Assembly: GCA_008632985.1 (NCBI GenBank)
Contig: QPGO01000048.1
Coordinates: forward strand, 62,001 to 126,000
DNA length: 64,000 nucleotides
Source of the DNA: Psammoneis japonica
Taxonomy: Eukaryota
Direction: 5' to 3'
The notes under the pieces are model-generated. The model saw nothing but the letters and a program-made list of their open reading frames with translations, searched no databases and was not told the origin of the DNA. Within the stretch, counting starts at the first letter, position 1. Every line of letters starts with the position of its first letter. This document shows, in pieces, positions 718 to 45,365 of the stretch. Position numbers and translations under genes: made by a program.

Positions 718-3522
<2,805 letters not shown>

Positions 3523-3592
3523 AGCTTTGGCGGAAAGTACACGTTTTTCACACTATGTGTAGTTCTTCTAAATTGAATAGACGAAATTGATT

Positions 3593-8136: not shown

Positions 8137-8433
8137 GGTGGATGCCGGTATTTTGCGTCAGCCGAGATGAAAACGATGACGAGAAACCAAAAAGCACTAC
8201 TTTATATATATTCATGCATGAATGTTTTAAATGTAAGAACTGTAGTATTATTTCTACGTACATCTATTTGTACCAGTAGCTTACGAGCAATAAAAATGGC
8301 GCGAAACAGCGACTGATTTCGATGTACGGTACAGTAGCCCTACGCTCTGTAGCAACACAGGAGACAGGCAGGAGCAGAAGCTACCGAGTGGTTCCGATCA
8401 CTGATGTGGTAGCTGCTTGTTGTTCATACCATA

Positions 8434-15966: not shown

Positions 15967-17061
15967 GTCGAATGATGATTCGTACTACTAGACCTAAGTA
16001 GACGCTACAAATTTCTTTCCGACTCCTCTCAAACTTTTGCTGCTCTATTCGAAAAACGACATGCCGTACGAGTACGTCTAAAGTGAAAAAGAAAAAGCAC
16101 AGAAGCAAATAGAGCGCAAGGCGGGGCAGACTAAAAACTTCGAAGAGACGCGGAGGATCGGAGACAGGGCGACGACATCATGGCATGGAACACAACACAT
16201 GGCACGCAGCGGGAATCCCACTCCCCCCTCGAATGCTAAAGATGTGCATACAGGTATGAAACATTACTACCGTACCGGTACGACAATACCGCGAAAAGAT
16301 TGAATGTGGTAGAAATCGCCCCCCCCTTGCTTCGCTCGCGCTTTTCCCATTCTCGCGTTCATGTGGGTTGCCCGTCTCCTTCCTAAAGTTTGTCAACTTT
16401 GAAGGCTCGTAAGTAAGGTGTGAGCTGCAGCATGAGCACGCTCTGCTTCCAGAGCTTCCACCGTGTGTGCCACCTGCCAGCGCACCACACTGCTGCAACG
16501 GCGCCACATTTGCTCCACTCCAAAGCCAGCAGCACGTTTCCTGTCACAAATTTTCACCACCAAAAACTGGATTTCTTCCACCAAACTTTGTTCCTGCCAA
16601 GCAGCAACCTCAAACGTGGTGCTCATGACATGCTGTGAGCCCTGGTGCAGCTGTGGGTGGCTCCACAATGTGGTCAAGGAAAAGATGAAATGACTGCACA
16701 CAGTCCTCACCTCAGGTTGTTGACAGTTTCACTTTTTCCTTCTGTCTTCTTCTTTTCTCTTATCTCTCTTCTCTTTTCCATTTTCCTTTGACTCTTTCTC
16801 TTCTTCTGAGCTGTGTTTCCCAGTCAAGTGTGTTCTCTCCTGCTCCAGCATTGCAGAGCACTGCTGCCCTGAGAGCAGCCACCCCAAACAAGCAATCCAG
16901 AGCAGTTGGATGAGTTGGCTGTGGTTGCCCCCTCTGGCGCTCCCCAGCCAGGGGGAAGTGAGAAGAGAAAACTTGCAATTGACAAAAGACAAGAGAAGGG
17001 GCACAAGCTGAGCTTCTTGGTTGAGCACACAACAAACTAGAGTGCCTGGAGTTTAAGAAGA

Positions 17062-17080
17062 AAGAGAGAGAGAGAGAGAG
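17062..17080 (+). repeat. (GA)n microsatellite
   Basis: agagagagagagagagag run. Confidence 0.8.
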
Positions 17081-17499
17081 ACAATGTGCGCAAATGAACT
17101 GCCCTGCAAAACAATCCTGTGAACAAAGCCATCTGTCCCCGCCCACCTCAGATCTTTTGACACAACAGCACTGACCTTGACCGTTTCAGTCACCATCATG
17201 ATGTCAACAACAGCTTCAACCAGATGTGACTGTTGCCCTTGAGAAGCATGTGATCACTTCCTGTTCTTGCACCCAGCAGATGGAAAATGACAATGAGTTA
17301 ATTCCTCACTTGGCTCAAATCAATTTGCACTCCAAACATCAAAAGCAGCTGAAAAGAGCCAGGAGTTTGCGGCTCCACAGGAGGAAATGACCGAGCTCAT
17401 TGCCCAAAAGAACCCAACAAGCTTTCAAATGCCAAGTCACCTGAGCCACACCAAAAGATCAAACTCCAAGTCATTCATCAAGAAATTGTGCAGTCATGC

Positions 17500-20140
17500 A
17501 TGAAAGCCATTTGACTGGCTGCCCCCACAGTTTTGCCATGGCAAACAGGAGCATTGCCACACCTGTCGATGCTGCAGGGGTTGTTCATCACAACTGCCAC
17601 CATAAAAACTCACTCAGGTTTGTCAAGATCTGCAAACTTGGCACTTTTTGTGCAAAGTGCAAGACAGCAAACAGCGCCCCAGATCTGCCCCAACAACTGC
17701 TGACTGCTCATGCTGACAACCAAATGGTGGGAACACAAGCTGCAGTCAGCGCTGATGAGCTGTTCTCTTTCTGGTGCAGCCACCATCAGCACCAGCCTCT
17801 CTGCAACCTTCTGCCACTTGACTGAAAATGGAGGCTGAGCTCAGCAAGATTTTCTGAGCACTTGACTGGCATGTCTTTGTCTCTCCCTTGAAGATCTGCC
17901 TGGGCTCCAAAGAGAAACACTGCATCAAGCTCCAATTGAGGAAAATGGACCCAGAGCACCATGGGTCAGATGCTTCCAAATGCACTGCAATGAGCTGTGA
18001 GGATGCTGGATGCCCAGCCAGCAGCTGATGTGCAGTCAACCTCCAAGAGCTCACTTGCAAGGAGACCAAGAAAAATGCAAAAAACCCACTCAGGACATCA
18101 GTTTGCTCTGCCACCAAGCTCTCCTTGAAATCTGTTGAACAATGACCAAACAAGCTGAGGCACCGCCCATCCAATGCTGGCACCTCATCACAAAAAGAGA
18201 AAGGCAAAAGTCCCTCATGAGGTTGTTTGTGGAAGCCACACTCACAGCAAGAACACACAACAAAGCTGATGCTGCCAACAATGCCATCACCAACACCAAC
18301 AGAAAAGCTTGCTGCTCCTCCAAATTGAAGCAGCAGTCAAAAAAGAAACAGCAGGAGTGACTGGCACTGAAGGAGAGCAGGAAGAGATTGCCAGACTCAA
18401 CCACTGCCATCACTTGTGAACAAATGTGAGTCTGAGCCCAGAGCATGATGTTGAGTGCAATTCCGAGTCAGCAATGGCACTGGCACAGTTCATGTGTGAG
18501 ATGAATGACAGACTCTGTTCAACCAGAAAGGGTGCTTTGTTTGCCCAACAGTGCCTGCTGCATGAAGGCCTGAAAGCATTTGGACAGAAGGGGCACAATG
18601 CCTCAAAGAAGGAGTCGGACCAATCCATGACAGAGTGTGCTTTGCACCAACATCTGTCAAAGACATGACTCTGAGTGAGAGGGTCAAGGCTGTGTGTGCC
18701 TTGATGTTCCTTGCAGAGAAACAAGACAGCTGGGTTAAAGGACAAATGGTCTGCAACAGGAAACCAACCAGAGAGTGGCCAGACAAAGACAAGTCAGCCA
18801 GCCCAATGACATCATTAGAAAAAGAATGTTCATTGCTGCCATTGTTGACACTGAGGAAGGACACGACATTGTGAGTGCTGATGCACCCAACATGTTCATT
18901 CAAACTCAGGTTCCAAAAGTTGAACAAGGAAACAATCGGATCATGATGAAGATTGCAGACACATGGTCCTGGAAAAGGTCAAGAGATTCCTTTGTGTGCG
19001 AGTGATTAGAGTGACACATGGCATGTTGGTTGCAGCACTGCTGTCTGGCAGAAGAAGTTCCGCAAGGACTTGGAAAAGATTGGGTTTGTGTTTGACCCAC
19101 ATGCCCCGTGCATTGCCAATTGTGTTGTCAATGGCAAACAGCACGCAGTGAGGTTTCAGGTGGATGACCTGTTGTTGAGCCACCAGAACCCAAAAGTGAA
19201 TGACAAGTTTTTAAGTTGGCTCAACAGAATGTGTGGGAGCCACAGAAAGGCTGTCATGACTTGAGGCAAGAAGCACGACTGTCCAGGGATGACCCCTGAC
19301 TTCACAGCAAAAAGTGCAAGTGTCAGCAGACATGACCAAGTGCATCAGCAAGACAACCAACCATTTCCCCAAGGCCATTGGAGCACAGATGCTGCCACAA
19401 CACCAGCTGGAGAAAACCTGTTTGACATGGTGGCGCACAAGGTTGCCGAAAGAGAAAGTGCAAACTTTCCACAAGCCACATGTGGGTGGCCAAGGGACTG
19501 TTTGTTTCCAAAAGAGGCTGGATGTGCATCCCACAATTGTTGCATTGTGCACAAGATTCATCAGAGAACCTGCCAACAAGGATTGGGGGAAACTGGTGGT
19601 CCATTGTTTGAAACATGTGAAGTGGGCATGAATGAAGTCACAACTTTCAGTGCAAAAGACCTCCAAGTCATCAAGTGGCACATGGATGCACCCTTTGCAG
19701 TGCACATGGATTTCAAGAGCTGTGCCAGAGCAGCAGTGACCATGGATGATGGAGCAGTGCAAGCTGCTTTGGATTTCAGAAGCTGAGCACCCAAAGCAGC
19801 ACAGAAGCTGAGCCAACAGTGGTCAATGATGCAATGACCATGACATCATGGAGCAAGCTCTTCTTGGAGCACCAAGGCTGTCTAACAACAAGAACACCCC
19901 ATGCCAAGACAACATGAGTGCCATCTTGCTTGAGAAAAAACAAGTGCAGGAGTGCAGGAAGCTTCCAGAGCTCTCAATGTTTGGTGCTTCTTTGTGACCA
20001 GCAATCAATTGAGAAAGGCAACCTGAGGGTGCAATGCTGTCCAACCCATGACATGTTGGGAGACTTCAAGACAAGTTGTTGCAAGGCAAGAAGTTTCAGA
20101 AATTCAAACAAGCTGTCATGGGGCATCAAATGGCAAGTGT
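17500..20140 (+). mobile_element. Degenerate Ty1/copia (CoDi-type) pol remnant: RT and RNase H, with a probable integrase remnant upstream; many stops and frameshifts
   Basis: Relics of conserved motifs: LMFLAEKQDSWVKGQMVCNRKPTREW, SADAPNMFIQT, HGMLVAALL, FDPHAPCIAN, RFQVDDLLLSH, KHDCPGMT, KWHMDAPFAVHMDFKS, QSSTEAE, CQDNMSAILLEK, CCPTHDMLGDF. The left boundary is approximate. Confidence 0.9.
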
Positions 20141-23100
20141 GACAGGCAGAGTTCCTGTCCAGTACATCAGACAAGAGTTCTGATGTGCACAGGTGAAAGA
20201 TCCCTGATTCATGGGTGAGAGATCCCCATGTGATGCCAAGACCTTCAAGCAGCCAAGAGATGAATGGTTCATGACACTTTGATGGGATGCAGAGGGTCTG
20301 CAATGCTTGTCAAGAACAAGCCAGGATGAGCACTGGAACAACTGTGCATGACATGAAGACACAGTGCTGGCCAAAGAATTGTTGGATGGACATTGAAACA
20401 GTCAGGTGGCTGTTGGACTTCACAAGGCCAACAAATCTTTATGTGAGGAAAGGAGAGAAGAACAACTGCAGCAAGAATGGGTGACTGGAGAACAGAGCTC
20501 ATCAAGCAATTCACTGAGAGTGCACTGGCAAAACCTCAGATGAGGGCCATGAGTCCTCTTCAGCAGAGACCACCAATCATTGGAAATTGAAAGGCAACAG
20601 ACATGAGAGATGCCCTGGACTGTGTCCAGCTTGTGACTTGAAGAAACAGAAGATGAGAATGCAATCACTCATTTGACATCATGGGTGGAATCAAACAATG
20701 CACTTTGACCAAAATGGGCTGAACTGTGCAAGAGAAGATTTGAGCTCATTGAGGACCCACATGTGTGTTGCATTGTAAGTTGGTCCCCAGAGATTGATGA
20801 GTGTGTGTCTGCTGCCCAACTGATGATTTCCATGCATGACAATTTTGAAACCTTGAAGAAAACATCAGGGACAAAGCTGGGTTCATGCACCTGACTGAGG
20901 AATGTTGGCAGATTGTTGGAAGTGATGTCCACAGTAACAAGTCAAATTTTGCACCAATTGGAGATTGACACGGCATTTTAGCAAGACATTTGACAAAACA
21001 ACAGTGGCAGGCTCGGGGGTGACAACTTGCAGTTGGCCCTGAGTGGACAAGATGCCAACCATCTGAGAGAACGGTTGAGTGTGAGTTGTCCCCCGTGCAG
21101 CATGGACATGGATGGGAGCTGTGGTCTCCCAAAAAGTGTCATGACAAAGCCAATGGGACATGAGACTGCTTCAGAGTGGTCAGGGATCCAACCAGAGTGA
21201 TTTTTGATGCCAGAAAATTGGCGCCATTTTTCCACCACAATGTTGAGGTTGCAAAGCTGGGTTTGACATGGACATGTCACAGAATGGAATTTTCAGAAAT
21301 GTGTCCAGAGAGAGTCAACAGATGGATTGAGCAACTGCTTGTTGGTTTGTTGGACAATGATGTGAAAGAGATTGTTCATCAAGCCTGCATCAGGCATTTT
21401 GTGGATGCCATGGAAGGACACACCCACAGGTTTCAAGATGATTGATTTCTCAGACAGCACATGTTGTGCCAATCTGTGGTGCAACAGCCAAGACATTGAA
21501 AATGCTGATGGTGCAAGTGGTGTCCCAGACAAGGAAATTGTCCAGCACCTCATCCCAAATCCTCAGAACACCAGTGAGAGCAGCAGGGGTGTGTTGGAGC
21601 ACACCTGACTTTGAGGGGCATCACGTGTGACCCAGAAATGAAGAATTTTCATCTTTTGAGCTCTGAAGTGGCAAGTTGATGCTGCTCTTTGGAGGTTTTT
21701 CTCTTTTCATTGATCACAATCTTACCAACTTTTTGTGCTCACTCTTTAAGCAAATCATCTGGTTTTGCCATCTGGATCATCATCTGGATTGTCAAGAACA
21801 ACAAGTGGCACCTGTCACTGTCCAAACAATCTGTTCAACACATGTGCGATGTTCAATGCAAGACAAACCACAGCTGAAACAGTCACCAGGGCAAGTGCAA
21901 TGATTGGCACAGGAAGCCTTGGGATTCCCTTTGGGCAACATTGACTGCCAATTCAACAACCCAAAAGTGCATCTGACCCAACTGGATGCCACCACCTTGA
22001 AGTTTGCTGACATCATCCAATGCTGCCATGCAACCTCAAAGCCAGACTCTTGAAGCTCTTTGCCAAATGCAGAGGCAGAGCCAACTTTCCAACTCAACAA
22101 TTTGCTGCACTTTCACCTTCCAAAAAAAAACCACTTTGTGTTGCTGTCCATGCCCAATGAGAGCTTGGGCCCTGTCATCATCAAAAAGACACAATGCACA
22201 TCAAAGTGGTGCTCTGCAACCATCTGGATGATGCATTTCAGGCACCAATCTCTGAGCAAGTTTGGTGCCCAAGTGCACAAATGCTGGCTCAAAAACACTC
22301 CCAGCAACTGGCTCAAAAAGCACAAAGTCAGCCTCCCATTGCAGACACAAGTTTCTGAAACATCAACTCAAGACTGACAAAAATCCCTTTTCCATTTTCT
22401 GCCTCACTTTAAAGATGCACAAGCTTCCACTGCTCTGACCCCACCTGATCATCATCTGGGCAGCAGATGACAACAAGCTCCAGCAAGTCACCAAGAGCTG
22501 CCAAAGTGGCTGCACTTTAAGAGCTTGCTGAACCTCAAGAACAAACTGATCTAGATGAGGAAATCCGCCAAGCTGGCTTCTCTTCTCATCTGCCATCAAG
22601 CAGGCTTGCTGCTCCAACATGCTCACCACCAAAAATCTCGTTGAGAAATTGCTCCTGCACCCCTTGCCAACAACGTGCACACAAACTGCCAAGATCTGCA
22701 CATGGCCATCTGGAAAATGCAGTTGCTCTTTTCAGAGCCAAAGTTTGCTCCACAACAAGAAGCCTGTGTTCTTGTTGAGTGCTCCTTCATTGCAACAAAT
22801 GGCTTTTTGCAGCTGACCAAATCATCAAAGCAGAAAACCAGACTCAAGACAAAATTGGGTCTCACAATGAATGGGCTCTTTGCAAGAGGATTTTTGAACA
22901 TGTTCGCGTGCAATTGTTGTGAATTTCTGTGTGTGCATCCACAGCATTGACAAAACTGGCATTTCAGGAAACAACAATGAAGAAACAAATGTGGCTCATT
23001 TCTGTGCACACACACCCTGACACCCAAGCAAGTCAACTGGGCTGAAGCATGCTGACAACTTGATTTGTTCATTTGTCAACTGGTGTGCATTTTGAAATTT

Positions 23101-26100
23101 TGGTTTCCAAAAATGTTTGTTTTCGGCACTGGCATTGTTTGGCACTTGGGGCATGCTCTTGTTCCATGCTGTCATTCCATTGTCTTTGCTCCCTCTGTTC
23201 TTTGAGCTGCCCCTCCCACAGTCTCTTGCAGTCTGTCTCACAGCACATGTTTCTGTTGTTGGCTGTGCTGCCATCAGAGCAATCCCTGGTGGAAGACAGC
23301 AGAGATGTTTTGAGCTTGGCATGTTTTGTGTGGCAAGCATGGCACAATGCTGCTGTTTCTGCTCACCTGTGTGCAATGTTGTGGCAATTTGTTTCTCATC
23401 CTTGGCTGTTTTTGTCAACTTGTTGGATTTTCAAAAAAGAAGAAATTTCAAAAGCACTGGTTTGTTGTTTGCTGCAAGCTCCTTGCTCTTGTGCCACACT
23501 TGTGACCTCTCACCTTTCTCATGGCATTTTTCATTGGCATGTGCAGAGCCCTGGATTTTGTTGGTGCCTTGCAGCAATGTTGTCATTGCTTGTGTGCTGC
23601 TTGGGTGCATCATCCTGTGTTTTTGTGTTGTTTTGTCTGGCGGTGATGTGGCTTTTTTGCCATGGAGCCAAGCCACCAGTTGGCCTGGTGATCATGGCAT
23701 GCATCATTCTGCAAACAGTCATTCTTCTTTGCAACCCTTTTGGCACATTTGTTTTTGAAGTTTGAGGCTGTTCAAATCAGCTTAAATCAATCATTTTGTT
23801 GGTCTTCACCAACAAAGCATTTTTGTTTGTTTGCCAGCTGGGTGTTGAACATTGTTTCACAATCAGATGCAGTGCATTTGTTTTCAAAGAAGATTGATGT
23901 CTCAGTCATTGTGACCTCTGAATCAACTCTTGTTCAGAGCAAAATCTTCACAGCTGTGCTGGTCTGAGCAGTTTGTTTGTTTGCATCTGTGGGACTCACA
24001 ACAACTTTTTTGGCTGTTGCAGCCAGCCATTCTCATCGTGTTTGAATCTTGCAGGCAACAAGAGGTCAAAAGAGGTGGCAGAGTTGGTCATGCAGGGCCA
24101 CAGCCCTGAACACAATGTGCCTGAAAAGAGCCAAAGCAGCAGCCCCTGGAGACGTGGGGGGCCACTGCAGCTGCAGCACCTCCTGCCAATGTTCTTCCAC
24201 CCCAACAAGTGGTTTCCCATGCCAGTGCAGCCATGTGCTGTTGTGACCCCATGTCACCTTGTCCCCAGAGGGTCAGTGCAGACTTGAGCTCCCCAACTTG
24301 AGAGCAAAGCAGCCCCATGATGGGCCCAACCAACCCAACAAGCAACAGCAGACTGAGAGCACTGGTGGTCTCTGATGGACCCCAGGCAACCAACATTTCA
24401 AAAACTGTGGCAGCCCTGGTTGAGTGTTGCAAGGTTGACACTGTGGTGTTGTGACCCCATGTTGCCTTGTCCCCAACAGCAGCAGACTTTGAATTTCCAA
24501 GCACCTGAGTGAAAGGATCCCATGATGGTGACAGTGCCAGCCAACCTGAAAACAGCAAGCTGAGGGCATTGGTGGTTTCTTTGTTTCTGTTTGTTGGAGG
24601 CAACAAAGAGCTGCTGTGATGAGTGGGCAAGCCATCCTCCATTTCATTCTGACCTGACATGCAGCAAGAACAGATCTTGCAGGCAGATTGGCTGGGATGT
24701 GGCTGGGATGCAAGCCACGCAAATTTTTGAGGCTTGTGGCCTTTGCAAAGCTTTCCTGCTGTGAGTTGTGGAGAGCAAGTCTTTGCAGTCAATCTTTTGT
24801 CAATGATGCAGTGGCTGCAATGTGGCATCAAACATCCATGCCAACCTTTGCACAAAAAATGAACCAATGTCAAATGAAATTCCACCACCAAAGCCTTGAT
24901 TGCAACTGCCACTCAATCAGCCCAACCCCCCATCAGCTGAGTGAATGGAGAATGCTCACCCTTGTTCTCTCCAACAAGCAAATTAGTGCCAGCACTTTGA
25001 CAAGCATGGCATCCAAACAACCTTTGCAATCTTCTGCAAGAGAGACAAAAATGGTGCATTTACAGAGCAACAACCAAGAGCTGTGCAGAAAGTGGACACG
25101 ATTTGGTGTTCACTGGCAGAAATCCAATGCCAAAGCCAAAACAGTGCACACCGCACATGCATGGACCCAAACAAAAACACAAAATAACTCACAACCATGT
25201 CAGCCTCAATGACTTGGCACCCACCAAAAATGTTTGCAGCACATTTGTTGTCAATGGATGGCTTGAAAGTGGTGCTCAATGAAGTGCAAATTGACCCTCA
25301 CTGCATCTGGGTTGATGTCAGGATTTGTCAAATTGTGATGTGATGATGATGAGGATGGGTCAGTTGGCTGAGCATTTGTGGCAGCAGGAAGCATGAATGA
25401 CAACAGGGGGATCAAATGATGACATGGCCATTGTGAGGGGCTGCTCAACATTGTGAATTGGGGTCTGGAGTGCAAGCTCACATTGGCAGAAGGACAGGAT
25501 CCAAACTTGCAACTGTTTTGTCTGTTAAAAGAGGATTGGTCCAACCATGTTGTGAGCAGTTGTTGTGAATGTTGGAGAGTGGCCGCAAGCAGGGAAGACA
25601 TGACTCCCTTCAAAAGTTTCTCAAGCTCAATTGATGGTGGGTCATTTGGGTTGCATGGCACATGTGGAGGAAGATGGGGTCACACAGGGGCTCTGACAAC
25701 TCCAAAAATGGAGCTGGTGCTTTGTGGGAAAGTGGCTTCAGTTTGTCAAGAAGTGACACTCCAGGGACATGCTGAGCTGAGTGTTGCTGGGCACACAAGC
25801 ACCAACTCATTTCATTTTTGTGCAGTCTTTGCATGGGTGCACGGGCCTTCTTGGAGTGAAATGGTGAGGTTCACTGAGTTGACTTTTTGTGAGATCTGGG
25901 CTTGTGACCCAGGTGGTGGCCCTGTCAGCGTCACTCAGCCTGAAGGCAAATGCTGCCCAGCAGTCATCATTGGTGATTTGCCAGATGCACAGTGGCATGC
26001 CAAAGGGGTTGATGGTGTGCCCCCACACTGTCCCATTGGACTGGCACCAACAAGCAGCATCACCAAATGTGCAAACAGTTGTTTTTTTCACAATGACTCA

Positions 26101-28264
26101 CAGTGCTTCAATGAGAGCTTCCATCTGCAACATGTTTTTGTGCTTGATGAGAAGATCAATTGATGAGCAGAAATGAAATTTTTACATGTGTGGTTGCACT
26201 CTTGACACGTGCAACACATTTTCAAAACTCAACCAAGGTGGCCACTGTCACTTAAATTCCAAACAATGTTTTGACACTGGCTGTGTTTTGGTCACAAATC
26301 TGGCATTGCAAAAGGCATCATTTTGGTCTGCAGTTGGGTTTTCCAGTGGTTGGGGATTTGCAATGTTTTGTTTTGTGGCCCAGCATTTTGTTTAGAGTTG
26401 ATTCATTTGTTTGGAAGAGCTTCAGCTCAAATGTCCATCGCATGATTTTGTTTTGTTTCTGCTGCATTTTTGTTTCTTTGTTGCATCCTTTGGCACCACA
26501 CAGCTCAGCCACCAACCCACTGTTCACTCAACAATGGTGTGCCCCTCTGTTGCAGTCTCTCCTGTGTCTCTGTTGCATGTCTGACAACAATGAGAAGAGT
26601 CTCCTTTTTCAAAATGCACATCAGATGGGCTGGGTGACCATGCATCACAGCCACTCCTGCAACCTCAGGAACCTCCTTTGGGACCCTTTGCATTTTGTGG
26701 GCTCCTGCTCATGGTGTGGCAGCCAGAATCTAAGTCTCTTTTGCTGCTGCCAGAGGGAGGAAGATGTGTTTGTCATTTGTTGTTGGCACAATGCTGGGCC
26801 GTCAATCTTGCTTCTTTGAGCATGAAGTTGAGCTTTCAAGGCCCACTTTCTGGGGCAAAATTTGAATTTTTTTACACCATGGGCACCCAAAGAGCCAGCA
26901 AGGCCAGCCAACCCCTGCCACTTTTCCTTCACACTTGTGAGAAAGGCTGTGATGCAGTGCAAGCGACAACAAGTTGGAGCAGAGAGGAGCCAATGTGTGC
27001 AGCCAGATGTGCTGCAAACACGAACATGGACAAAAAGAAAGAGCAAAGAGGGTGAGAGGGCTCATGAGAGACTCTTGGCCCAGCCAGGCCCCAGTGCAGC
27101 AATGTGGCTTGTCTCTTTTCTCTTTGTTCCTTCTCATCAACAGGGGCCAAAAGCGCTGAGCCACACCGCAGAGAGGCGCAAGCGCATGCTCTCCACCACC
27201 CTCTCATGCAACAAACAGCAGAGGCAGTGTCAAGAGAGTCATGTCTCATGCACACCACACATGACACAAGCAATGCAACATGCAATGCATCATCATCAAC
27301 AAGTGTCTGTCTCTGTGCACCTTCACAGCACCAAGCACCCCCAAGTGGCGGCCGGAGAGCCTCACAACCCTGGGCTGTGCCGCTGGGGCAAACTGCCCCA
27401 TAAAAATGCAGTGCGAGTTTCTGCCAGCCGTGTGGCATTTCTTTGTTATTTGTGTTGGCAGTCATGAATGTAAAAGTTTCTTCGTTTGCGAGTGCCGTAC
27501 GAGCATGATGTGGGCCCTAAATGTTAGACTGCCGCACCGCATGTGATCGAAAGACATTTTCTCGAAACAGCTGGTGGGGCATCTGCAAGAGACTTCAGGC
27601 ACGCAATGACGCACCGAGAGAGGCTGACGTTTCTTTGTTGGTTGACATCCCCATTAAATGAATCATTTAATAATTTTTCGGAATTTTGTTTAACAATGCA
27701 CTAGAGTCGTTAATTGGTTGTATTGACAGAAGATGAATGGGCAATGTGGGGACTTCTACTTCACTTCCGTGCAACGCAGAAGCCACTTATGCCGCCGTAC
27801 CGTATATACCTGAATGTACGTAAGATGGCGTTCGTTCAAATCAATCACCTTTTACAGTATTTTGATCGACATGCTCACATCCAACGAAACGAAGAACACC
27901 GAATCGGAACTACTTAGCCCTACAACCAAAGAAGTGCTGAAAAAACTTGCGAGATAGAGCACCAAGCAGTGGGCGGGGAAGTGGGATACTATTTTTGAGG
28001 GAAAAGTGAGGGTATTCTACGATAACTAAAAACAACACTACAAATTCAAAAAATAATCAAACAGAAATTCAAAATTGCAGAAGATGAATTCGGCATCTTC
28101 GGATAGGTCAGGAGCAGGTGTGCCGCCAAACTTCTCAGCATTGACGTTCCTCTGGGCGCTGCGTCAGCAACAATTCAGGATTCGTCGGTATCCTCTCGAC
28201 ACTTCTATGGAACAACAAGTTCGAACGCGTCTCTTAACTCGTCTTCTTTTCGGAGGCGGCAACG

Positions 28265-29484
28265 ATGGTTCTAGGAGGCTCATCATCCGCTTCACATACG
28301 GGCGCATTCCTTTTGAGTTTACAAAGCAACAAATCACTCGAACAGAAAGATCTACCGGCGTTTGTTAAGGAGCACAATGCCGCTCTTTCTTTCCCTGAGA
28401 AGGTAAGGCTGGGTTTCTACCGTTTGTTGGTTCGCGCCTACATAGAGATGCGAAAGGCCCTAACGAGATTAAACTGCTGATTTCCAACCACAGCTGATGA
28501 TCATGCTGACCCATGTAGACAAAGAGTTGTCCAATTCGAAGAACAAGGCAAGCACAGCTGAAGCAGAACAGCCCTGTATCTATTGGATCCTGAATGGCCG
28601 TGCGTTCATCATCCGCGACAGAGAGGCTCTTGTGAAGGACCTTCTGCCTCTCTTTTTCAAGGAAACAAAGTTCAATTCCTTCACTCGTAAGCTCTACAGG
28701 TGAGTTGGGCACATACTATCGCATGGGTGACGATGCAGATGCGTAAAGTGCTGTTTGAATTCGTCCTTTGACGATCAGCACTAAAAAACTAGGTTTGCTG
28801 TTCTTTATACTGTAGGTGGGGGTTTCGACAAGTCAATTTCGTGTCGGAGAAAGTGTACAACAACGTCGCGAGATGATCTTTGGCCATGATCACTTTCAGC
28901 GGGACAACAAGCAGTTGATAGTAGGAATGAAGAGCACCACTGCTGCAGGGAGGAGGAGAGCGGTTGCTGCAGCGCAGATGCGTGACCATGAGCAGCACTA
29001 TGTCAGTTCGTCTCGGGGTTTCGTGTTAGAGAACGAAAACCCCGCGCAGGCTGCAAAGCTTGTCGGTTCTGTTGCTGGCTCCAAAAGAGCTCCTACGGAG
29101 GAGCTTGAACAAGCTCTCAAGAAGAAGACTGCGTTAAGCTCAAATGTGCCTGCTCCTCAACAATTGTCAATGATGCAACTGTCAACCCCAAGGTTTCTTC
29201 AGATTGGGCATTCCTTTGCTCACGTTCCTGGCGGAGGTGCTCAAGGATTTGGGAGATCTCTATATCATCCTCAGCAGGGAATACTGCAGAGAAGCGAGCA
29301 GCTTGCGAGCCCTTACTTGCCAAGCCTCCCGCAGCCCTCTGCGACTATGCATCAAGCTACTTTACCAGGAGGAGTGGTGCACGGCGAATCTGGTAGCGAG
29401 GCCGATAGCGATCAAGCACCGTCAAAGAGAGAAAGGAACGACCGGGCGAAGAGCGGCATCGACTTGTTGCTGCGGTATTCATAG
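28265..29484 (+). CDS. Heat shock factor (HSF DNA-binding domain) transcription factor; 3 exons, apparent 1-nt frameshift at ~28838; start uncertain (could be 28084)
   Basis: SFPEK|LMIML, CIYWILNGRAFII, LLPLFFKETKFNSFTRKLYR|WGFRQV, FGHDHFQRD. Introns ~28403-28492 and ~28700-28815. Confidence 0.9.
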
Positions 29485-29793
29485 TGAAGCGCAGTCGATA
29501 CACACTAGCTACAGTATGCCGGTGCTTGCTTCGTTTCCAATGCCCTTGTGCATACCAAGGTATATGCACATCAACAGGCGTTCAATCTAAAGCTCTTTCT
29601 CTACACGCCTGCTGGGTTAGGTGCGTTCTTTCATATCAACAACTACATACTATATATTCAAAGGCGACAACTGAAGGGTAACCAGCGCTACAACAACAAT
29701 AATACATTCCACTTTCATCCCCTCTAGTAGAGGGTAGCTTAAAGAAAAACTACTAGGAACACGATTTGGGTCAACTCTGGACTAATGGTTGAT

Positions 29794-31206: not shown

Positions 31207-32395
31207 TTCGTCTTGGTACCGGAGGGCAAATGCAGCAGAAGTGGTGCCGATGCCGATCCAAGAGATAGATTGTGTAGCCTCTAGAGTAGCGAGCGAGCAT
31301 TTGTACTGAAGCAGTCAGTCAATCAGTGCGGCTTGAGCGTTTTAGAGATCGCTGGACAGACCGTACTAGAAGTACGTAGTTTCTCTTGCCTTCGCGCCCT
31401 ACTGTACGTGCGCGTACGTACGATTGATGTCGCACTGGCGATCAGACCTTCTTCGACGGATCTGTTGCGCTTTCGTGAAGACCTCTCCCACTTCAGATTG
31501 GGCGCGCCGCATGCAGCGCACAGACTGCTCTGGCTCTACTCCAGAGAGCAGAGTCTGTCCACAGTGCCTGTGTGGAGTGGTTTTGAAGCAGTTGCGGTGC
31601 CTGAACCGCTGCAATGGTGATGACGCCATGGTGGAATGACCAACGCCGCGTGCCGTTGCGTTGTGCACTCTGATTGCACTGCACTCCGACCCTTCTTTTG
31701 ATTTGTTTGGCAGAAGCAATGAGGAAAGAAAGGAGAGAGACAAGAAGCTTTGGGATCTTCTGCAGCATCATGTGGTGCTTGGTGAAGGAGCCGACCCAAG
31801 CACGAGGATCTCTCACTTCAATTGCAGGCTCTTGCCAGACAAAGAACTTGTGATTTGCTGCTGGAGTGTGTTGGAACATCTGCGTCATCTGTCGATGCAT
31901 TCGTGGACCCAATGGAGTCTCTCTGGTCATCCTTGTTGGAGGGCATTGTCGATGGAAACAGCTCTTGTGGCACTCACATCTGCAACAAACATGTGTCTTG
32001 GATTCAATGAATTGTCTTTTGAGGCCATGATGAGGCTTTGGAAGTCCTTGTGAGACAGCATTGAAGCCCCAAAACAGGACAAGCTTGAGGATCCTCCTTC
32101 TTCATCCAGCAATGATGGGGTCCAAGAGTTGAGAAAGGACACCGCTTTCTTGTGGCCGCCGTCATCCCAGGAAACAGAAAATTCATTGAAGCACTTGTGT
32201 CCAGAGATGGATGTGGGGAGTCAGGCATCTCATGAGGACACAGAGATGAAGGTTCAAGGCACTCTGAAGTGCGATCCAGAACTTCCTGCTGCGCACTTCT
32301 TGTGGTTCATCAATTGCCTCCACAATGATGAGAGGGTTGGAGCAATCAATGCACTCCACCAGTGCTTTGATTGCACCATGATTCAAGACCGGAAG

Positions 32396-32671
32396 TGACA
32401 GAAATTGAAGGCAAATGGCAAGAATTCAAACAACAACTCCTTGCTGCTGTCTGAACAGCAGATGAGTCTCCGCTCAGAGACCGTTGCAGGAGCCAAAAGA
32501 CGTGCAAGTCGGCACAATCGGGCCACTGTTGTCATTCTTGTGAGCCTTGTGGCTCGAAAGCAAACTGCATCGCGCGCGAACACGCGGAACTAAAGCACAC
32601 AAAACTGTGCGCGGCAAACCAAACAGCGCATGACATTTCGCGCGCACCCAAATCCTGTTCAAATCCTGTCA
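32396..32671 (-). repeat. 3' LTR (276 bp)
   Basis: + strand begins tgacagaaat and ends aaatcctgtca (TGACAG inverted termini). Bases 32396-32514 match 35911-36029. Confidence 0.85.
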
Positions 32672-32680
32672 CTCCCCAGT
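32672..32680 (-). promoter_or_regulatory. Polypurine tract end
   Basis: Minus strand reads ctggggag|tgaca, the typical copia GGGGAG-TG junction. Confidence 0.7.
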
Positions 32681-33224
32681 TTGCTTGAGGAGCCACAGAA
32701 ACAGATTCGACTTTGGATTGACCAAAGAACTTTGGAGTCAAGGCACCAAAAACATGAGGAGACAAGAAAGGATCAAAGTGGGTCATCTTGAGATGAGCTG
32801 CGTCTCCCCAATTGCAGATGTCGTTGTGCTTTTCAAAGCTCAAGGCACACTTGGGATCTTGTGGGATTCCACATCCGCACTTGCAATGGAAGGAGCAAAG
32901 CTTGGTCTGGTTGACAATGTTGAACGGCGGGGCAACATTGCAGGCGGCATGGTGTTTGCACGACTCGGGGAACAGAGCAAGCATGAGTTCAAAGGCACAA
33001 GCGGTGGCCTTGTGTTCCACCAATCCGATTGCAAGCTCAGCTGCATCTCCTGAGAGACTGATCCAATTGGAGAAACGAGTCTCAAGGTGCAAGCCTTCGG
33101 GGATCGGATTGGAGCAAGACATCTTGTGGTGCAAGGCTGCAGACATCTGATTGGGGCAACCAGTCCCATGCTGCAAGGCTTCTGGGATCCAAAAGGACTT
33201 GCCAGTCTTGTGACACGAGTCTTC

Positions 33225-33920
33225 GGGGATCCAATCAGGAGGCCAAGTCTTGAGGTGCGAGACTTGGGGGATCCAATCAGGAGGCCGAGTCTCGTGGCGC
33301 AAGACTTGAGGGATCCAATCCGGAGGCCGAGTCTTGAGGTATGAGACGTGGAGGATCCAATTGGGAGGCCCGGTCTCGAGGCACGAGACGTGGAGAGTCC
33401 AGTTGGGAGGCCTGGTCTCAAGGCACGAGACTTGGGGCATCCGATCAGGAGGCCCAGTTTCGACGTACGAGACTTGAGGCATCCAATCAGGAGGCCCAGT
33501 CTCGAGGTACGACACTTGGGGCATCCAATCAGGAGGCCCAGTCTCGAGGTGCGAGACTTGAGGCATCCAATCAGGGGGCCTGGTCTCGAGGTACGAGACT
33601 TGAGGCATCCAATCAGGAGGCCTGGTCTCGAGGTGCGAGACTTGGGACATCCAATCAGGAGACCTGGTCTCGAGGTACGAGACTTGGGGCATCCAATCAG
33701 GAGGCCCAGTCTCGAGGTACGAGACTTGAGGCATCCAACCAGGAGGCCTGGTCTCGAGGTACGAGACTTGAGGCATCCAATCAGGAGGCCCAGTCTCGAG
33801 GCACGAGACTTGAGGCATCCAATCAGGAGGCCTGGTCTCGAGGTACGAGACTTGAGGCATCCAATCAGGAGGCCTGGTCTCGAGGTGCGAGACTTGGAGC
33901 ATCCGGTCAGGAGGCCTGGT
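33225..33920 (-). repeat. 42-bp coding tandem array, ~16 units (ETRPPDWMPQVSYL)
   Basis: Unit catccaatcaggaggcc(tg/ca)gtctcgaggtacgagacttgagg on the + strand, head to tail with no spacers. Confidence 0.95.
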
Positions 33921-34233
33921 CTCATGGTGCGATGCTTGGAGGATCCGAAGACAACAAAGCTGCTTGGATGTCCTGAACTCCCCATCTGATGAACCGGTTG
34001 AACTGTTGTGAACAGATTCAATGACGGGAAAAGGAGGCCTCGAGACTTGAGGCATCCAATCAGGAGGCCTGGTCTCAAGGTGCGAGACTTGGAGCATCCG
34101 GTCAGGAGGCCTGGTCTCATGGTGCGATGCTTGGAGGATCCGAAGACAACAAAGCTGCTTGGATGTCCTGAACTCCCCATCTGATGAACCAGTTGAACTG
34201 TTGTGAACAGTTTCAATGACGGGAAAAGGAGGC
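33846..34233. repeat. 195-bp tandem duplication (65 aa) within the LTR element
   Basis: 33846-34037 is nearly identical to 34041-34232. Confidence 0.9.
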
Positions 34234-35895
34234 TCCCCATCAGGAGATGCGAGAAGCAAGTTGTCATCTCCATCACTTCCCAGACGAAGACTGTGAAGGG
34301 TGACAGTGGTCAACATGTGGAGGTTGGCAGCATGTGGTTTGCGGGGTGCAAAGACTGCAGCTTTGGAAGCCATGGGTGGAGTGTCCCAACTGGTCTCGAA
34401 GTGCGGGCCTGTGCAAGGGCTGCAATCCTGCACTGGGCCGAGGTTGCTTGCAGGCGGGTTGGTCAAGACATGTGGGGTGCGACTGACACCACTTCTAGGG
34501 GACACCTGAGTGGCGGCACAGTGCAAGGCTGGTGTCAAAATGGCACTGGGTTCACCTGGTTTGGATGGCAAGGGACTCGGCACAGGTGCGGAGGGTGCTG
34601 CGCCAGTGGCCAGAGAGGTCAAGTGGTCCGGACCAAGGCGGCAGTTGCGAAATTCGTCGGGTGTGAGCAACTGGGGTTCATTGGTCACATCATCACCATT
34701 GCAAACTTTGACAAAGTAGAAGCTGATCAAAGCTGCCAGGAGGTTTCTGTGGGTCCATGGCAAAGGCACTGCATTGGCGCCATCTCTGCAAGTGAGGGCG
34801 TCAATTTGGGTGGGTGAGAACGTGAACAACTCCTCGCACGATTCAATCCCATTGATGGACAGGGCAGAATGAAGAGGGCTGTCATCGTCTTGATTGAGCA
34901 CAGTGCCTAGAATGCATTTGAAGCTTTCGGTTTGTTGCTGTCACGTGAGAACCATGACGGAGGACGGTGCAGTAGAAACAAAAGACAGGAACCAATCTAG
35001 AGCGCGATCTTGACTTGGAGTTTTGACTTGGAACTTGGCTTGAAAAAGACTTGACTTGAGCTAGACTTGACTTGAAATCTTGGACCATCTTAAAATCAGA
35101 AGTCGCCGGGTTGTGCTGTCCCGTTCGTTGTCAAGTGCTAAACTTCCCATCCGGTCCGTAGAGTTGTGCCGGCACGTCCGAACCCGCAGCTGGTGGTGCT
35201 TTGGGTTGCTTGCGAGCGGAGCAGCGGGTTGTTAACCCCTGCAGGCAAGCTGACTAGAGGTGGACAAGACCCCCGAACCGTTCTCATTTTATGTCGGTTG
35301 GATTTCCCGATCAGGCTGGCCAGTTGACGCAGGCGTTGGGCGCTGTCGACGAACGAACAAATGCGGGAAAAAACACCCTCACCCCAACGTAGGCTGCAAT
35401 CACGGCTGCTTGCTCTCACAGTCGTCCTCGTGGACCTAGTGGAACTGTAGAGCACCAGCAGTCCGGGGTAGATCAGGTACAATGGACTCGGTGTGCTTGT
35501 AGAGTGGCAGCAAAGCCGCAGTCCAAAGAGTGGGTACAAGTTCTTGGCCGTGAAGATATGTATATATATATGTCTTCAGCGACGAAGATTCTTGAATGTG
35601 TAGGGTTCTTGACCGTTAACCGTTGAATGGGTATACTAAGGGATGAGGATCAAGGATAGACTTGGATATGACCGTTGAATGTATGTCTTCAGCGATGAAA
35701 GGTAGTGTGATCAATCCAGATATCCAGCGGTAAGGAGACTTGACGGTGACGTTAAATTCCTGCCGATGCCTGGTATTGAACGCGCGTAGACTTGCCGATG
35801 TACGTAGAATATATACGGAGGTCCACGCAGAATTGAAAAGGCGTCGTCGGTAAATCAACGACGACGATGGCGGTTGCTCAATGGGTTGACAATGA

Positions 35896-35910
35896 GCAAG
35901 ACTGTTAATC
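35896..35910 (-). promoter_or_regulatory. Putative primer-binding site complementary to the tRNA-Asn(GUU) anticodon arm (half-tRNA priming)
   Basis: + strand gcaaga-ct-GTT-aa-tc directly abuts the 5' LTR. Confidence 0.6.
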
Positions 35911-36029
35911 TGACAGAAATTGAAGGCAAATGGCAAGAATTCAAACAATAACTCCTCACTGCTGTCTAAACAGCAGATGAGTCTCCGCTCAGAGACCGTC
36001 ACAGGAGCCGAAAGATGTGTGAGTCGGCA
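35911..36029 (-). repeat. Truncated 5' LTR (119 bp retained)
   Basis: 109/119 identical to 32396-32514; similarity stops abruptly at 36029. Confidence 0.85.
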
Positions 36030-37454
36030 GTCTCATTGTTCGCTCTTCACTCATCTTTTGGCAACAGGGATCTTTCTTGCAATGCCACAGAGGAGGCTGT
36101 CTGTGTTGCTCAGGCAAGCAGTGACAAAGCATGTGTGGCATGTGCTCTTGGGTGGTTGTGTCACAACAAAGCAAAGCAAGGCACGGGGAGTCAGAGGAGC
36201 TCTTGGAGTGATGTTTGAGTCATGCGGCCAACACAGCAAACTGCGTTCCCTTGCTGGAGGTGTCAACATGGAGCTTGCAAGACACTGTCTCATGCCACCC
36301 TCTCATGATCATCAAGAGCTTTAACAACCCCATGGATTTGAGAGCACAGTTGCTGCAAGGCAATGCTTGGACAGGGCTGGGCTCATCCAAGGCAGGCAGA
36401 AAGCCATTGTGCAACCGTGTGCCACATCTTGCCTTGTCAAAGAGCTCTCCATCAGTGTCTGCAGACCAAACAGGATGCAGTGGATGATCCTGGATAGTGG
36501 GCTCCTTTGGGAGCATTGAAGATGGAAAGGTGATGACAGAATCGTCCCAATCCAGTTTGTCACAAGTGTCACAGCAATTGCTGAAATTGTCAGCATCGTC
36601 CAGTTTGGCCATCTCAACAGAAATCTTGCACCACTCTCTCTGAACTGCAGGACTTGGAACGAATGGAAACATGCATGACAGCAGCAGCAGTGCCAGATGT
36701 GTTCTCAATGGGACAACAATGGAACCCGGCACAGACTGGCATTCCTCTGGTGTGGGGCAGTCATCACAATCCCAAGTGCAAGTCTCACGATGATCAAGAC
36801 TTCAGCATTGATCCCACCCAGCAAAGCCGCGGCAATGCCAATGTCACAAGGGTGACCTCTGTCATGTTAGAGACAATGCTTCAGGAGTGGACTGTTGTCA
36901 GAGTTGTTGAATGCACAAACCCCTTGGCGAAAAAGAAATCAACCAGTCATCTTCTTGCCTCACTCAGTCATTCCCAGTCAACCGATTTGGAAGAAGAGGG
37001 GACACACAACCTTTCTCCAATTCCCATGCTTGTCCATTGCATGAAAACAAGAATGAAATTGAGGTTTGTGTCCCATGTGACAGGTCCATTTCCATCACCA
37101 TTCATCATCCTGATGACACGATTGTGAGGAAAATTCAAGAAACTCACATGGTGGGTGCAGATTTCACTTTTCATTCTAAACCTTTCAGGCATTGACAAAT
37201 GATGCACAAACATTGGCATTGGCCAGACAGAGCTGGTGATTCCAACAGAGCATGTGCAAGCATGTGGTGCTGTGCACTGCAGTCAACAGAGGAAAAGAAT
37301 TAGCCACGCTGAGGAAGTGGTGATGACCATGAGCCCAACAATGGCAAAAGAGGACCAAGACAGTCAACAGAGACAAAGAGAAACAGCAGATGGACTGGAG
37401 AAAGCCACACTGGTTTTGCCCACAGGGACTTGTTGGTGTCATGGACCACAATGT

Positions 37455-37772
37455 GAGGATGCACTTCTTGTAAAAAAAGCACCATTTGAGACGGTGTGGC
37501 AGAACAGCCAGAGCATGAGTTGATCCTTGGCCACCGAAGTGGTCCCCGCAACAAGCGAACCCAATCGGGATTTAGAGACAGGTGGACCAGCTGAGAGATC
37601 CATGCCAGTTTTGCCCATTGGGACTCAGTGGCAACTCAGACCGTAAATCTGAGGATGCAACCCTTGTAAAACAGGCACCATTTGAGATGGTGTGGCAGAA
37701 TGGCCAGAGCACGACTCGATCCTCGGCTGCCAAAGCGGTCCCCGCAAAAGAGCGGACCCAACCAGGATTTGG
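37455..37772. repeat. Diverged ~196-bp tandem duplication
   Basis: gaggatgca..cttgtaaaa..gcaccatttgaga.ggtgtggcagaa occurs at 37455 and 37651. Confidence 0.8.
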
Positions 37773-38903
37773 AGCATGTCCATGCAAGATGGCACCACAT
37801 GGTGTGAACTCAGTCAACATGACAGAGAAGGGTGGGAGGTGCATCCACAAGACAGTGCCAAATGGCATGGTGAAATGGCGCCAATGCACGAGACACTCCC
37901 GACTGCGCAAAAGCAGACCACGCAAGGGATTTTCTGTCAGCTGACAGGAAGGAAGAAAGCCCATTTCAATTTTCATTGTTGGCATCTGCTTGGAGACACC
38001 TTGACAGTTCCATGGTGTCTCCCAACCTGCCAGACAATGAGGGATCCCTTGGGCTGGCCTCATTTCTGGTTTTGCTTGCTCGTCTCATCCATCGTCCATC
38101 CATCATCCGCCCATCATCCTTCCTTCACCCGCTCATTCCTGCTTTCATGCAGTGCTCTTGGTCCAGCCAAGGAGGTCCTCTCATTCTTGGGCTTAGAGTC
38201 TTAGCCACGATTGCGAGATTTTTTGTCTTGCCATCATCTCCGCTCTTTTTGAGCTCAGCGCGTTTTGTGTCTGGTCGTCGCATGGCACATTCTTTGCGCT
38301 CAGGCTTGCAAGATTTTTCATCTTGCCATTGTCCATTCTTTTTTTAATCAGCGGATTTTTAGTCTGGCCATCATGCAACAATTGATTGTCTGGTTGTCAT
38401 CCACAATCCGTGCACTTGCAAGTTGCAAGGTGTCCGTTTCGTTCGTTCTTCTCTCTCTCTCTCTCTAAAAAACAACATGTCAAAACTCAAGCACAGTGGT
38501 TGCTCGTCACTCTGAATGACATCAACAAGCCATCCATTGACACAAACACACAAACAGCAATGTGGGTGAAGAACAAGCATGCAGGAATTTGGCGTGTCGA
38601 TTCAAAACCCGTCCTGTTGTCCTTCCTGCAGATTGTTCAGACGGGAGGAGAGTGTGACTTCGCTCAGGTCACCATAAACAAAATTTTTGTGCCTTCCTCG
38701 CTGAAATTAGTCCTGGTAAAGTTTCCGGCCTTGGTGAATACAAAGTGGACACAGATGACCGGAAGAACCACTGTGCCATTAATGACATTCTCATCTATCT
38801 CAGTCCGTCTTCAGTCAGTCTGTCCGTCATCAATCCTTGTCGTCGTCCCTCCGTCGTCCGGTAGTCCGGAAGGTGGATGCAATACAGTAATGGACGATGG
38901 ACG

Positions 38904-44728: not shown

Positions 44729-45365
44729 TATAGCAGTGCCTTGCGTATTAACACTCTCGGTTGAGGAGCTTCAAGCCAGCTCTTACCGTTGAAGAACAGA
44801 GAGTGGTAGTGTGGCGGAAATGAAAAATTGTGACGATGAAATTGCGAAGTCGTCATCGAACCGCAAAAAATCGGTCGATGACCGTTGAACGTATATAAAC
44901 ATATCCGTATGTATATCGTATAATGTTAAGCTTGCGACCGTTAAAAAACACCGTCCGTCCTGCGCCTCAAGTACCGTATGTATGTATGTATGGTGCAATT
45001 GTACATACTGTAGGGCCCTATCCTTTTTGCGCCAAATCCACCTCGCGACTCGCAACAACCACCGACCACCGTTCCTTTTCGTTTCATTTATTCGAGTCGT
45101 CGTCCTCCACTCTCTCTCTATCTACTCTACCGGTAGCAATAGAGGAGGTACAACAAGTCGACTGGCACTCAAGCTTGTCGTGTTTGAATCGTCGACTCAA
45201 CTGCTTCTTCACTCAGGATCATCAGTAACTTCCTAAATCTACGCGTTTACCATTCGCATCATCATCCGTTTGCTCATCGCTCATCGGTATTTCTGGCTGC
45301 AGCAGTGGCAAGTTAGAGTTACGCAGCGATAGGCGACAAATAACCTACTTTCTTTACTGGTCGTC

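Follow-up and report, generated by a model that had tools for sequence, protein, structure and literature searches.

Targeted hypermutation of mobile DNA is established for cytosine, as in fungal repeat-induced point mutation (RIP) and in APOBEC systems. For a counterpart directed at TpA dinucleotides, a full-text search of the literature found one matching description, a preprint of 2026 on the rhizarian alga Bigelowiella natans, whose main text reports that 231 of 302 nuclear point mutations in mutation-accumulation lines fall in two integrated viral regions and that 230 of these 231 are A->G or T->C changes, the GC-biased ones all at TpA, at ~1000x background (bioRxiv 10.64898/2026.01.13.699255). 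The same text describes in the B. natans genome 124 clusters of TpA-poor, TpG/CpA-rich windows and TpA-depleted coding sequences in which reverse transcriptase and DDE domains are over-represented, and the authors (Mettrop et al.) propose an ADAT2-like DNA adenine deaminase (bioRxiv 10.64898/2026.01.13.699255). The DNA considered here is a stretch of 64,000 nucleotides from the diatom Psammoneis japonica (assembly GCA_008632985.1, contig QPGO01000048.1, positions 62,001 to 126,000 of the forward strand), hereafter the window, in which two tracts are almost devoid of TpA. A first-pass annotation of the window had suspected a mutator of silenced repeats and knew of no described system matching it; the TpA hypermutation of B. 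natans is such a system. The analysis reported below makes it highly probable that repeat and duplicated DNA in these tracts has undergone in-place, TpA-specific A:T -> G:C hypermutation, accompanied by CpG decay.

Tract 1 (16415–27400) is characterized by the apparent conversion of nearly all TpA and of ~90% of CpG to TpG/CpA. In a sliding dinucleotide count in which positions 1–16000 and 39001–64000 (41,000 nt) served as flanks, the interval 16415–27500 (11,086 nt) contains 34 TA against 756 expected from base composition (ratio 0.04) and 67 CG against 630 (0.11), together with an excess of TG (1245/659, 1.89) and CA (1292/724, 1.78); the corresponding flank ratios are 0.56 for TA, 1.00 for CG, 1.09 for TG and 1.13 for CA. 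The remaining twelve dinucleotides are nearly unshifted with respect to the flanks (AA 1.19 versus 1.16, AT 0.79 versus 0.87), and the GC content is equal inside and outside (0.477 versus 0.484, with an A fraction of 0.274 versus 0.255). Since AA is unaltered, as are the remaining contexts of A, the loss is specific for TpA, as had been supposed. At flank density, 411 TA and 642 CG would be expected in 16415–27400, which contains exactly 30 TA (Poisson log10 P = -132) and 62 CG; the earlier estimate by eye of about 30 TA in place of several hundred was correct, and so was the description of TG/CA richness beside genes of normal TA content.

The borders of tract 1 are abrupt. On the left, TA is present at 16410 and 16414 and next at 16761, and the edge 16415–16615 is TA-free with 7 CG still present; on the right, the edge 27154–27400 is likewise TA-free with 7 CG, the first TA after the tract is at 27401, and the whole TA gap 26873–27401 contains 9 CG, 7 of these from 27154 on. 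The tracts are discrete regions adjoining normal genes, with edges at 16414/16415, 27400/27401, ~31420–31540 and ~38670, and all 27 gaps of at least 200 nt that are both TA-free and CG-poor fall within tracts 1 and 2. In all six frames of tract 1 there are 590 TGA, 40 TAA and 11 TAG stops.

Tract 2 (31420–38670) has a less uniform composition. Counted over 31401–38670, TA is at 75/426 of expectation (0.18) and CG at 262/480 (0.55); gaps between TA extend up to 1054 nt with 2–4 CG per 100 nt, where the flanks have 5.8, and the TA that remain are concentrated in an island at ~34973–35815 and in a tandem array of 42-bp units. In tract 1 the CG ratio (0.11) corresponds to a loss of ~90%, and in tract 2 (0.55) to one of about half. 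Because tract 2 and the 200–250-nt edges of tract 1 are TA-free at a density of 2–4 CG per 100 nt, the TpA loss is separate from CpG decay, which fails to account for the whole pattern, the removal of TpA being outside its reach; the first-pass annotation had reached the same view, and the retention of CG in TA-free stretches bears it out. The CpG loss itself is probably due to ordinary deamination of 5-methylcytosine (5mC) in methylated repeats, and the Introduction of PMC9998398 links diatom cytosine methylation to transposable elements. Diatom DNMT4, described there as related to the RIP enzyme RID and as having no known function (PMC9998398), would bear at most on this CpG part. In tract 1 the most depleted CpG context is TCG, with 20 of 402 kept versus 29–43 of 252–316 for the others, a weak hint of a relation to the TCG preference of DNA-active ADAT2.

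The direction of the change can be read from the coding remnants. A homology search with the frame 19010–19882 of tract 1 returned 42 proteins, every one carrying RVT_2 (PF07727), the named ones belonging to the diatoms Fragilaria crotonensis and Nitzschia inconspicua, and tblastn of RVT_2 homologues onto the window matched only 18276–20136 (+), limited to the reverse transcriptase (RT) and RNaseH part. This segment is best read as a Copia-type (RVT_2) polyprotein remnant, so that tract 1 appears to carry a truncated Copia-type element. A TA-free sequence cannot encode Tyr, and for a coding element the TA-free state is therefore not the original one. In fact, at 259 columns conserved among RVT_2 relatives, none of the 12 conserved Tyr is kept in the remnant (now Cys 6, His 2, Trp 1, Gln 1, Leu 1, Phe 1), and Arg is kept in 4 of 15 columns, with changes that include Gln 3, His 1, Cys 1 and stop 1, the shifts to Gln, His, Cys and stop that CpG decay predicts. 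For the remaining 18 residue types the retention is 136 of 232 columns, including 12 of 19 for Lys and 7 of 12 for Asn. Related metagenomic Copia loci have a TA observed/expected ratio of 0.32–1.09 (median 0.63) in 80 of 80 cases, these being the best 80 of 552 confirmed matches, from which hypermutated relatives may be ranked out; that such relatives might already be TA-free, the outcome named beforehand as fatal to the idea, was thus not observed, each of the 80 loci having a ratio of at least 0.32.

In tract 2 the same changes affect what is apparently a host gene copy. Two APC5 (ANAPC5) orthologues of 796 and 777 aa (39% and 34% identity) match by tblastn at 31628–32395 and ~36024–36375, with a frameshift and an in-frame TGA, and the Pfam ANAPC5 profile matches the first part with its positions 1–32 and the continuation with its positions 36–87 (E = 1.5e-10). 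The first part of the pseudogene (31420–32395, +) corresponds to orthologue residues 1–260 and is TA-free, and the continuation (36024–36375, +) corresponds to residues ~264–402. The comparison stands at the protein level, as a paralogue from the same organism is absent from the protein collection. At sites conserved in the two orthologues, Tyr has become Cys or His, as in QYFDY -> QCFDC and VAYALGW -> VACALGW, and Arg has become Trp, Cys or stop, as in FLRF -> FLWF, EEAVRVAQ -> EEAVCVAQ and MAERPTP -> MVE*PTP. Taken together, the residue changes in the RT remnant and in APC5 and the normal TA content of the relatives identify the changes as TA -> TG/CA and CG -> TG/CA.

Between the two APC5 parts lies a 3.6-kb element flanked by 119-nt direct repeats with TG...CA ends (copy a, 32396–32514, +; copy b, 35911–36029, +), which are identical when written in purine/pyrimidine letters; tract 2 can accordingly be described, on sequence grounds, as a host APC5 pseudogene split by an LTR-like (long terminal repeat) element. 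The interior of the element (32515–34972, -) has lost most of its TA and keeps about half of its CG; it contains the 42-bp tandem array (33215–34143) and an open frame of 802 codons (32535–34940, -) without a Pfam family, which encodes ~20 units of the 14-residue repeat S[Y/H/C]LETRPPDWMPQV. This frame persists in TA-depleted DNA since the conversion of TA to TG or CA makes no in-frame stop, only CGA -> TGA can do so, and half of the CG are kept. Of the earlier assignment of both domains to transposable elements, the Copia RT/RNaseH remnant and the LTR-like element stand, whereas the second domain includes the host APC5 pseudogene into which that element is inserted, and the rest of the first has no recognised match. 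In particular, for ~9 kb of tract 1 outside 18276–20136 no match was recognised by Pfam or by tblastn of RVT_2 homologues. Pfam gave no transposable-element domain at E <=0.01 in 107 open reading frames (ORFs) of at least 80 aa, the sole match being ANAPC5, nor in 50 frame pieces of tract 1 with TGA read as X at the same threshold. A BLAST in the purine/pyrimidine alphabet, whose E-values are uncalibrated for two letters, revealed neither an LTR pair around tract 1 nor a target-site duplication; the pairs judged real are the 119-nt pair, the 42-bp array, a 196-nt duplication and two short pairs.

Because of how such elements integrate, their terminal repeats are expected to be identical at insertion. 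The two 119-nt copies now differ by 10 letters at 7 sites and nowhere else; all 10 differences are transitions and all lie within TA, CG, TG or CA dinucleotides, three sites being TG versus CA doubles and two being TA versus TG or CA. Each of the three doubles implies one ancestral dinucleotide that was resolved independently in each copy. A similar picture is given by the 42-bp array, in which the unit junction reads TA, TG or CA depending on the unit and the peptide is SYLETRPP, SHLETRPP or SCLETGPP. The 196-nt tandem duplication at 37378–37774 is older and noisier, with 40 differences in 175 aligned columns, of which 30 are transitions and 22 lie inside TA/CG/TG/CA dinucleotides in both copies.

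The outcomes are distributed over both strands. The sense strands of the RT remnant and of APC5 display Cys (TG) as well as His (CA), in 500-nt bins the number of TG balances that of CA, and no correlation exists between neighbouring TG/CA outcomes (lag-1 r = 0.017, permutation sd 0.021), the autocorrelation of outcomes revealing no strand-coordinated runs of TG or CA. Outcomes that occur on both strands and are not predicted by their neighbours exclude RNA editing before reverse transcription and make long single-strand runs unlikely. These observations bear on the proposal that the composition is original or was acquired before integration, either in elements intrinsically free of TA and CG or through ADAR-like editing of RNA. 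ADAR does prefer a 5' U (bioRxiv 10.64898/2026.01.13.699255, Discussion), but in this case the loss of all 12 conserved Tyr beside relatives with normal TA, the presence of TG and CA outcomes on the sense strand, the independent conversion of the terminal repeats at either end of a single inserted element, and the equal effect on a host pseudogene and on non-coding DNA leave the proposal with next to no credibility. The terminal-repeat, RT and APC5 evidence agrees instead with the strand-symmetric A->G (T->C) change suggested in the first-pass annotation, and it supports a reading of the TpA loss as a directional, strand-symmetric A:T -> G:C change that took place after the copies were made.

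The hotspots of DNA polymerase eta are WA sites, and this polymerase had been listed among the candidate agents. In a repair-based explanation, T:G mismatches arising from 5mC deamination would recruit a pol eta-type polymerase that miscopies T at WA, and the occurrence of TpA and CpG loss in the same tracts is in its favour. However, AA is undepleted (1.19 versus 1.16 in the flanks) and the cleanest comparison, the terminal-repeat pair, contains transitions only and no transversions, for which reasons pol eta fits poorly. Moreover, the TA loss is complete where CpG is only about half gone, and the B. natans preprint, in its main text, describes hypermutable regions in which GC-to-AT mutation is absent or almost so (bioRxiv 10.64898/2026.01.13.699255). 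Repair damage of this kind is therefore regarded as distinctly improbable.

The TA that survive in tract 1 have a marked context. Where TAA occurs on neither strand, 3 TA survive versus 257 expected at flank density; where it occurs on one strand, 17 survive versus 137; and in TTAA, which has TAA on both strands, 10 survive versus 16.6. With the three tracts pooled and the tandem array left out, the contexts of surviving TA differ by chi-square from those of the flanks (p = 1.5e-15) and of the relatives (p = 1.3e-10). On the product side, with CpG decay allowed for, the estimated TA-derived gain is 171 for TGC, 140 for TGG, 121 for TGT and -18 for TGA. The simplest rule compatible with these counts would be a motif acting per strand, 5'-TAB-3' (B = C, G or T), in which A is changed to G; TTAA often survives because TAA is a poor substrate and the site is protected on both strands. 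Equally, the motif could be read in its complement as V-T-A, with T changed to C.

This second reading is the basis of a thymine chemistry, in which a TET/JBP-type dioxygenase would oxidise T at TpA, within 5'-V-T-A-3', to 5-hydroxymethyl- or 5-formyluracil, whose pairing with G would give T->C. All the sequence results are complement-symmetric, T->C being indistinguishable from A->G on the opposite strand; furthermore, 5-formyluracil mispairs with G, and the 5-hydroxymethyluracil of dinoflagellates is enriched at TpA. On the other side, the data considered here hold no sign of thymine modification in diatoms, oxidised T should yield some transversions while the terminal repeats have 10 transitions out of 10, and the B. 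natans authors, in the main text, prefer adenine deamination. Thymine oxidation is thus considered unlikely, adenine being the preferred target in what follows.

A further explanation is that the pattern comes from sequencing or assembly, with modified bases of heterochromatin misread and TA and CG present in the true DNA. The public run X1 contains 0.68 of 1048 sampled words from 13000–22999, and the accuracy of its reads is suggested by a longest contig of 315 kb and an even word depth of ~58–60. Compared with tract 1, X1 contigs have 7–15 other letters per 480–688 nt, and of the 33 differences in tract 1 among the best-supported 40 of 1238, none puts TA at a TG or CA of the window, one has TG at a TA of the window, and six are CA versus TG doubles. 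The possibility that reads might show TA at these sites, raised in advance as a refutation, therefore found no instance among the 33. An artefact would be in keeping with the 1–3% difference between the window and X1 contigs in tract 1, as opposed to 5 letters in 2246 in the flank, and with some of the CA/TG doubles being covered by only one X1 contig; but X1 contigs are TA-free as well, strand misreading predicts all-TG or all-CA runs, or a random occurrence of TA and CG, where a fine mixture with ~97% of TA absent is observed, and the context rule with the survival of TTAA indicates a chemistry acting on DNA. A basecalling artefact thus appears unlikely from the sequences, and the explanation as a whole, assembly included, very improbable.

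In-place conversion of TpA is consequently retained, and the following course of events can be proposed. Repeats and duplicated DNA in the diatom nuclear genome have been mutated in place, with TpA converted to TpG/CpA near completion by a process that acts per strand and site by site at 5'-TAB-3', the A being afterwards read as G. It halts within tens of bases of neighbouring genes and is far faster than ordinary divergence. A second, slower process has stripped CpG, of which tract 1 has lost ~90% and tract 2 about half. Of this course, the sequence demonstrates the composition, the direction and strand symmetry of the changes, their origin in place and the rule of context; the nature of the agent is inferred. 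It may be an enzyme that deaminates DNA adenine to hypoxanthine and is directed to silent or foreign chromatin, in which case the system would be of the same kind as the de novo hypermutation of B. natans. To our knowledge, no natural enzyme deaminates chromosomal DNA adenine at such density; the deaminase mechanism, taken by itself, is put forward tentatively, as something short of an even prospect. The complete account, which joins in-place TpA conversion, a DNA adenine deaminase and a second process at CpG, is on balance the likely one.

Several observations weigh against this account. The ancestral context frequencies are proxies, taken from flank genes or from elements of other organisms, and the product-side estimate assumes that CpG decay is independent of context and that the flank composition equals that of the ancestor. 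The exclusion of TAA is not absolute, since of two TA sites for which the terminal repeats reveal the change, the one at 32453 is TAA -> TGA. No record gives the library type of X1, and X1 may be the source of the assembly, which would make it not independent. Within tract 2, a 0.85-kb island of normal composition is without explanation. The main text of the B. natans preprint contains no mention of CpG, as opposed to the strong CpG loss found here, which would therefore be either an additional effect or a distinct process. Finally, amphioxus BjADAT2, a DNA-active deaminase, prefers the motifs GAA for A and TCG for C in E. coli, and not TA (PMC10354150).

The island (34973–35815) adjoins the 3' terminal repeat, contains a TATATATATA run at 35557–35570 and has no Pfam match; in 34973–35970 there are 45 TA and 58 CG in 998 nt, and the right edge is put at ~35815–35850 because the few TA further on have the TAA context that confers protection. 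The island may have been inserted later or may itself have been protected. The remainder of tract 2 (36376–38670) is TA-poor and includes the 196-nt duplication described above. As regards the copy environment of the inserted element, the summed word depth of X1 reaches 176,138 at 32009–32675 and then 12,756–17,227, with flanks at ~58–60 and values of 105–1414 over 17335–26672 in tract 1; this sum is not a copy number and is used only as a sign of diverged relatives. In the very small run X3, 33 of 1439 contigs fall on the examined stretch, the eight listed lying in 32458–32676 and 33761–33874, and many contigs start at 32396 and stop around 32501. Both the 119-nt repeat and the 42-bp array are apparently members of a highly abundant family.

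Relatives of tract 1 in X1 are also diverged, 2787 of 3593 contigs being less than 99% alike, and X1 also contains a relative ~88% alike to the APC5 piece. Duplication, foreignness and chromatin state are the candidate triggers of the process. At six places in 17624–24681 the sole X1 contig has TG against CA in the window, or the reverse; these swaps could be haplotypes or near-identical copies that were independently resolved and, if so, would point to recent or ongoing activity. A third run, X2, splices out two GT..AG introns of a neighbouring gene (28403–28493 and 28700–28815) and behaves like RNA. One of its contigs is ~88% alike to the APC5 piece 31611–32394, with 96 other letters in 784, and six X2 records together contain G>A 21, C>T 23, T>C 15 and A>G 17 versus 21 transversions. 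No X2 contig falls on tract 1, a blank that is not evidence of silence.

Other features of the window lie outside the two tracts. The segment 43436–44189 has 750 nt without TA, with high CG (6.4–8.4 per 100 nt) and a TG+CA observed/expected ratio of 1.03; it sits in a repeat-rich ORF (43031–44770, -) with a villin headpiece domain at its end, and looks like the composition of a coding repeat rather than a hypermutation signature. A 66-nt inverted repeat (60097–60162 and 60982–61047) is identical in purine/pyrimidine letters, and the segments 60073–60162 (-) and 60964–61071 (+) encode the same peptide (AYTRHGIPFVTMLSRYKQW) on opposite strands. The eIF3L gene in the flank has as its best named relatives diatoms only (Nitzschia, Cylindrotheca, Pseudo-nitzschia, Seminavis), with 57–63% identity, which places the window in a diatom.

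The literature found holds one TpA-directed counterpart to cytosine hypermutation, that of the B. natans preprint, and a saturated signature in a diatom would extend it to a second, distant and ecologically dominant lineage in which retrotransposons and duplicated host genes are both affected. The substrate rule, in which TAA is spared and TTAA often survives, is testable and can be used for screening candidate enzymes. For annotation, such tracts evade domain-based detection of transposable elements, as Pfam gave no such domain in spite of RVT_2 homology; they generate long false open frames, since only TGA stops remain, and would distort divergence-based repeat dating. If the mechanism proposed above is true, base editing could also draw on a naturally occurring deaminase of DNA adenine whose motif is defined. 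A broader idea, possible but rather doubtful at present, is that diatoms carry an active, sequence-specific, adenine-deaminating genome defence that acts at 5'-TAB-3', one strand at a time, on silent repeats, inserted elements and gene duplicates until no TpA, and hence no Tyr codon, is left and that is homologous to the B. natans system, the A-to-G counterpart of RIP being old and widespread in the stramenopile-alveolate-rhizarian lineages.

Among the systems based on cytosine, fungal RIP resembles the window in its dense, transition-only, strand-symmetric, in-place mutation of repeats with sharp borders and in the inactivation of both transposons and gene duplicates. In contrast, RIP turns C into T, mostly at CpA, with the formation of TpA and a fall in GC, whereas here TpA is destroyed at a GC content of 0.477 versus 0.484; the first-pass annotation had rightly described the pattern as the opposite of RIP, TpA being removed and GC unchanged. 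The 5mC decay of methylated transposons explains the CpG -> TpG/CpA part, while the TpA loss is more complete than the CpG loss and reaches beyond it. Among adenine-directed enzymes, the DNA-active ADAT2/TadA deaminases offer a likeness in that adenine is deaminated and then read as G. Engineered adenine base editors are DNA adenine deaminases of the TadA family, and in the natural tRNA target A34 is preceded by the conserved U33, which makes a U-A step.

The closest likeness is with B. natans, as far as the main text of the preprint describes it (bioRxiv 10.64898/2026.01.13.699255). In both cases only TpA -> TpG/CpA is involved, on both strands and in discrete regions beside normal genes; the long-term trace consists of clusters poor in TpA and rich in TpG/CpA, and for both a part in defending the genome from invading DNA has been proposed. 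In the window the targets are partly mobile DNA (the Copia RT remnant and the LTR-like element) and partly a host gene duplicate, the APC5 copy, with ~9 kb of tract 1 unmatched; those of B. natans are integrated NCLDV (nucleocytoplasmic large DNA virus) and virophage insertions. The hosts are a diatom (stramenopile) and a chlorarachniophyte (rhizarian), respectively, and the events that are caught occurring in B. natans appear in the diatom as a saturated end state, with ~97% of TA gone. The 3' exclusion of A is a feature described here, the words 'trinucleotide', 'TTAA' and 'flanking' having no occurrence in the main text of the preprint. Judged from its sequence, the window carries the same kind of signature as B. 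natans in a second, distant lineage.

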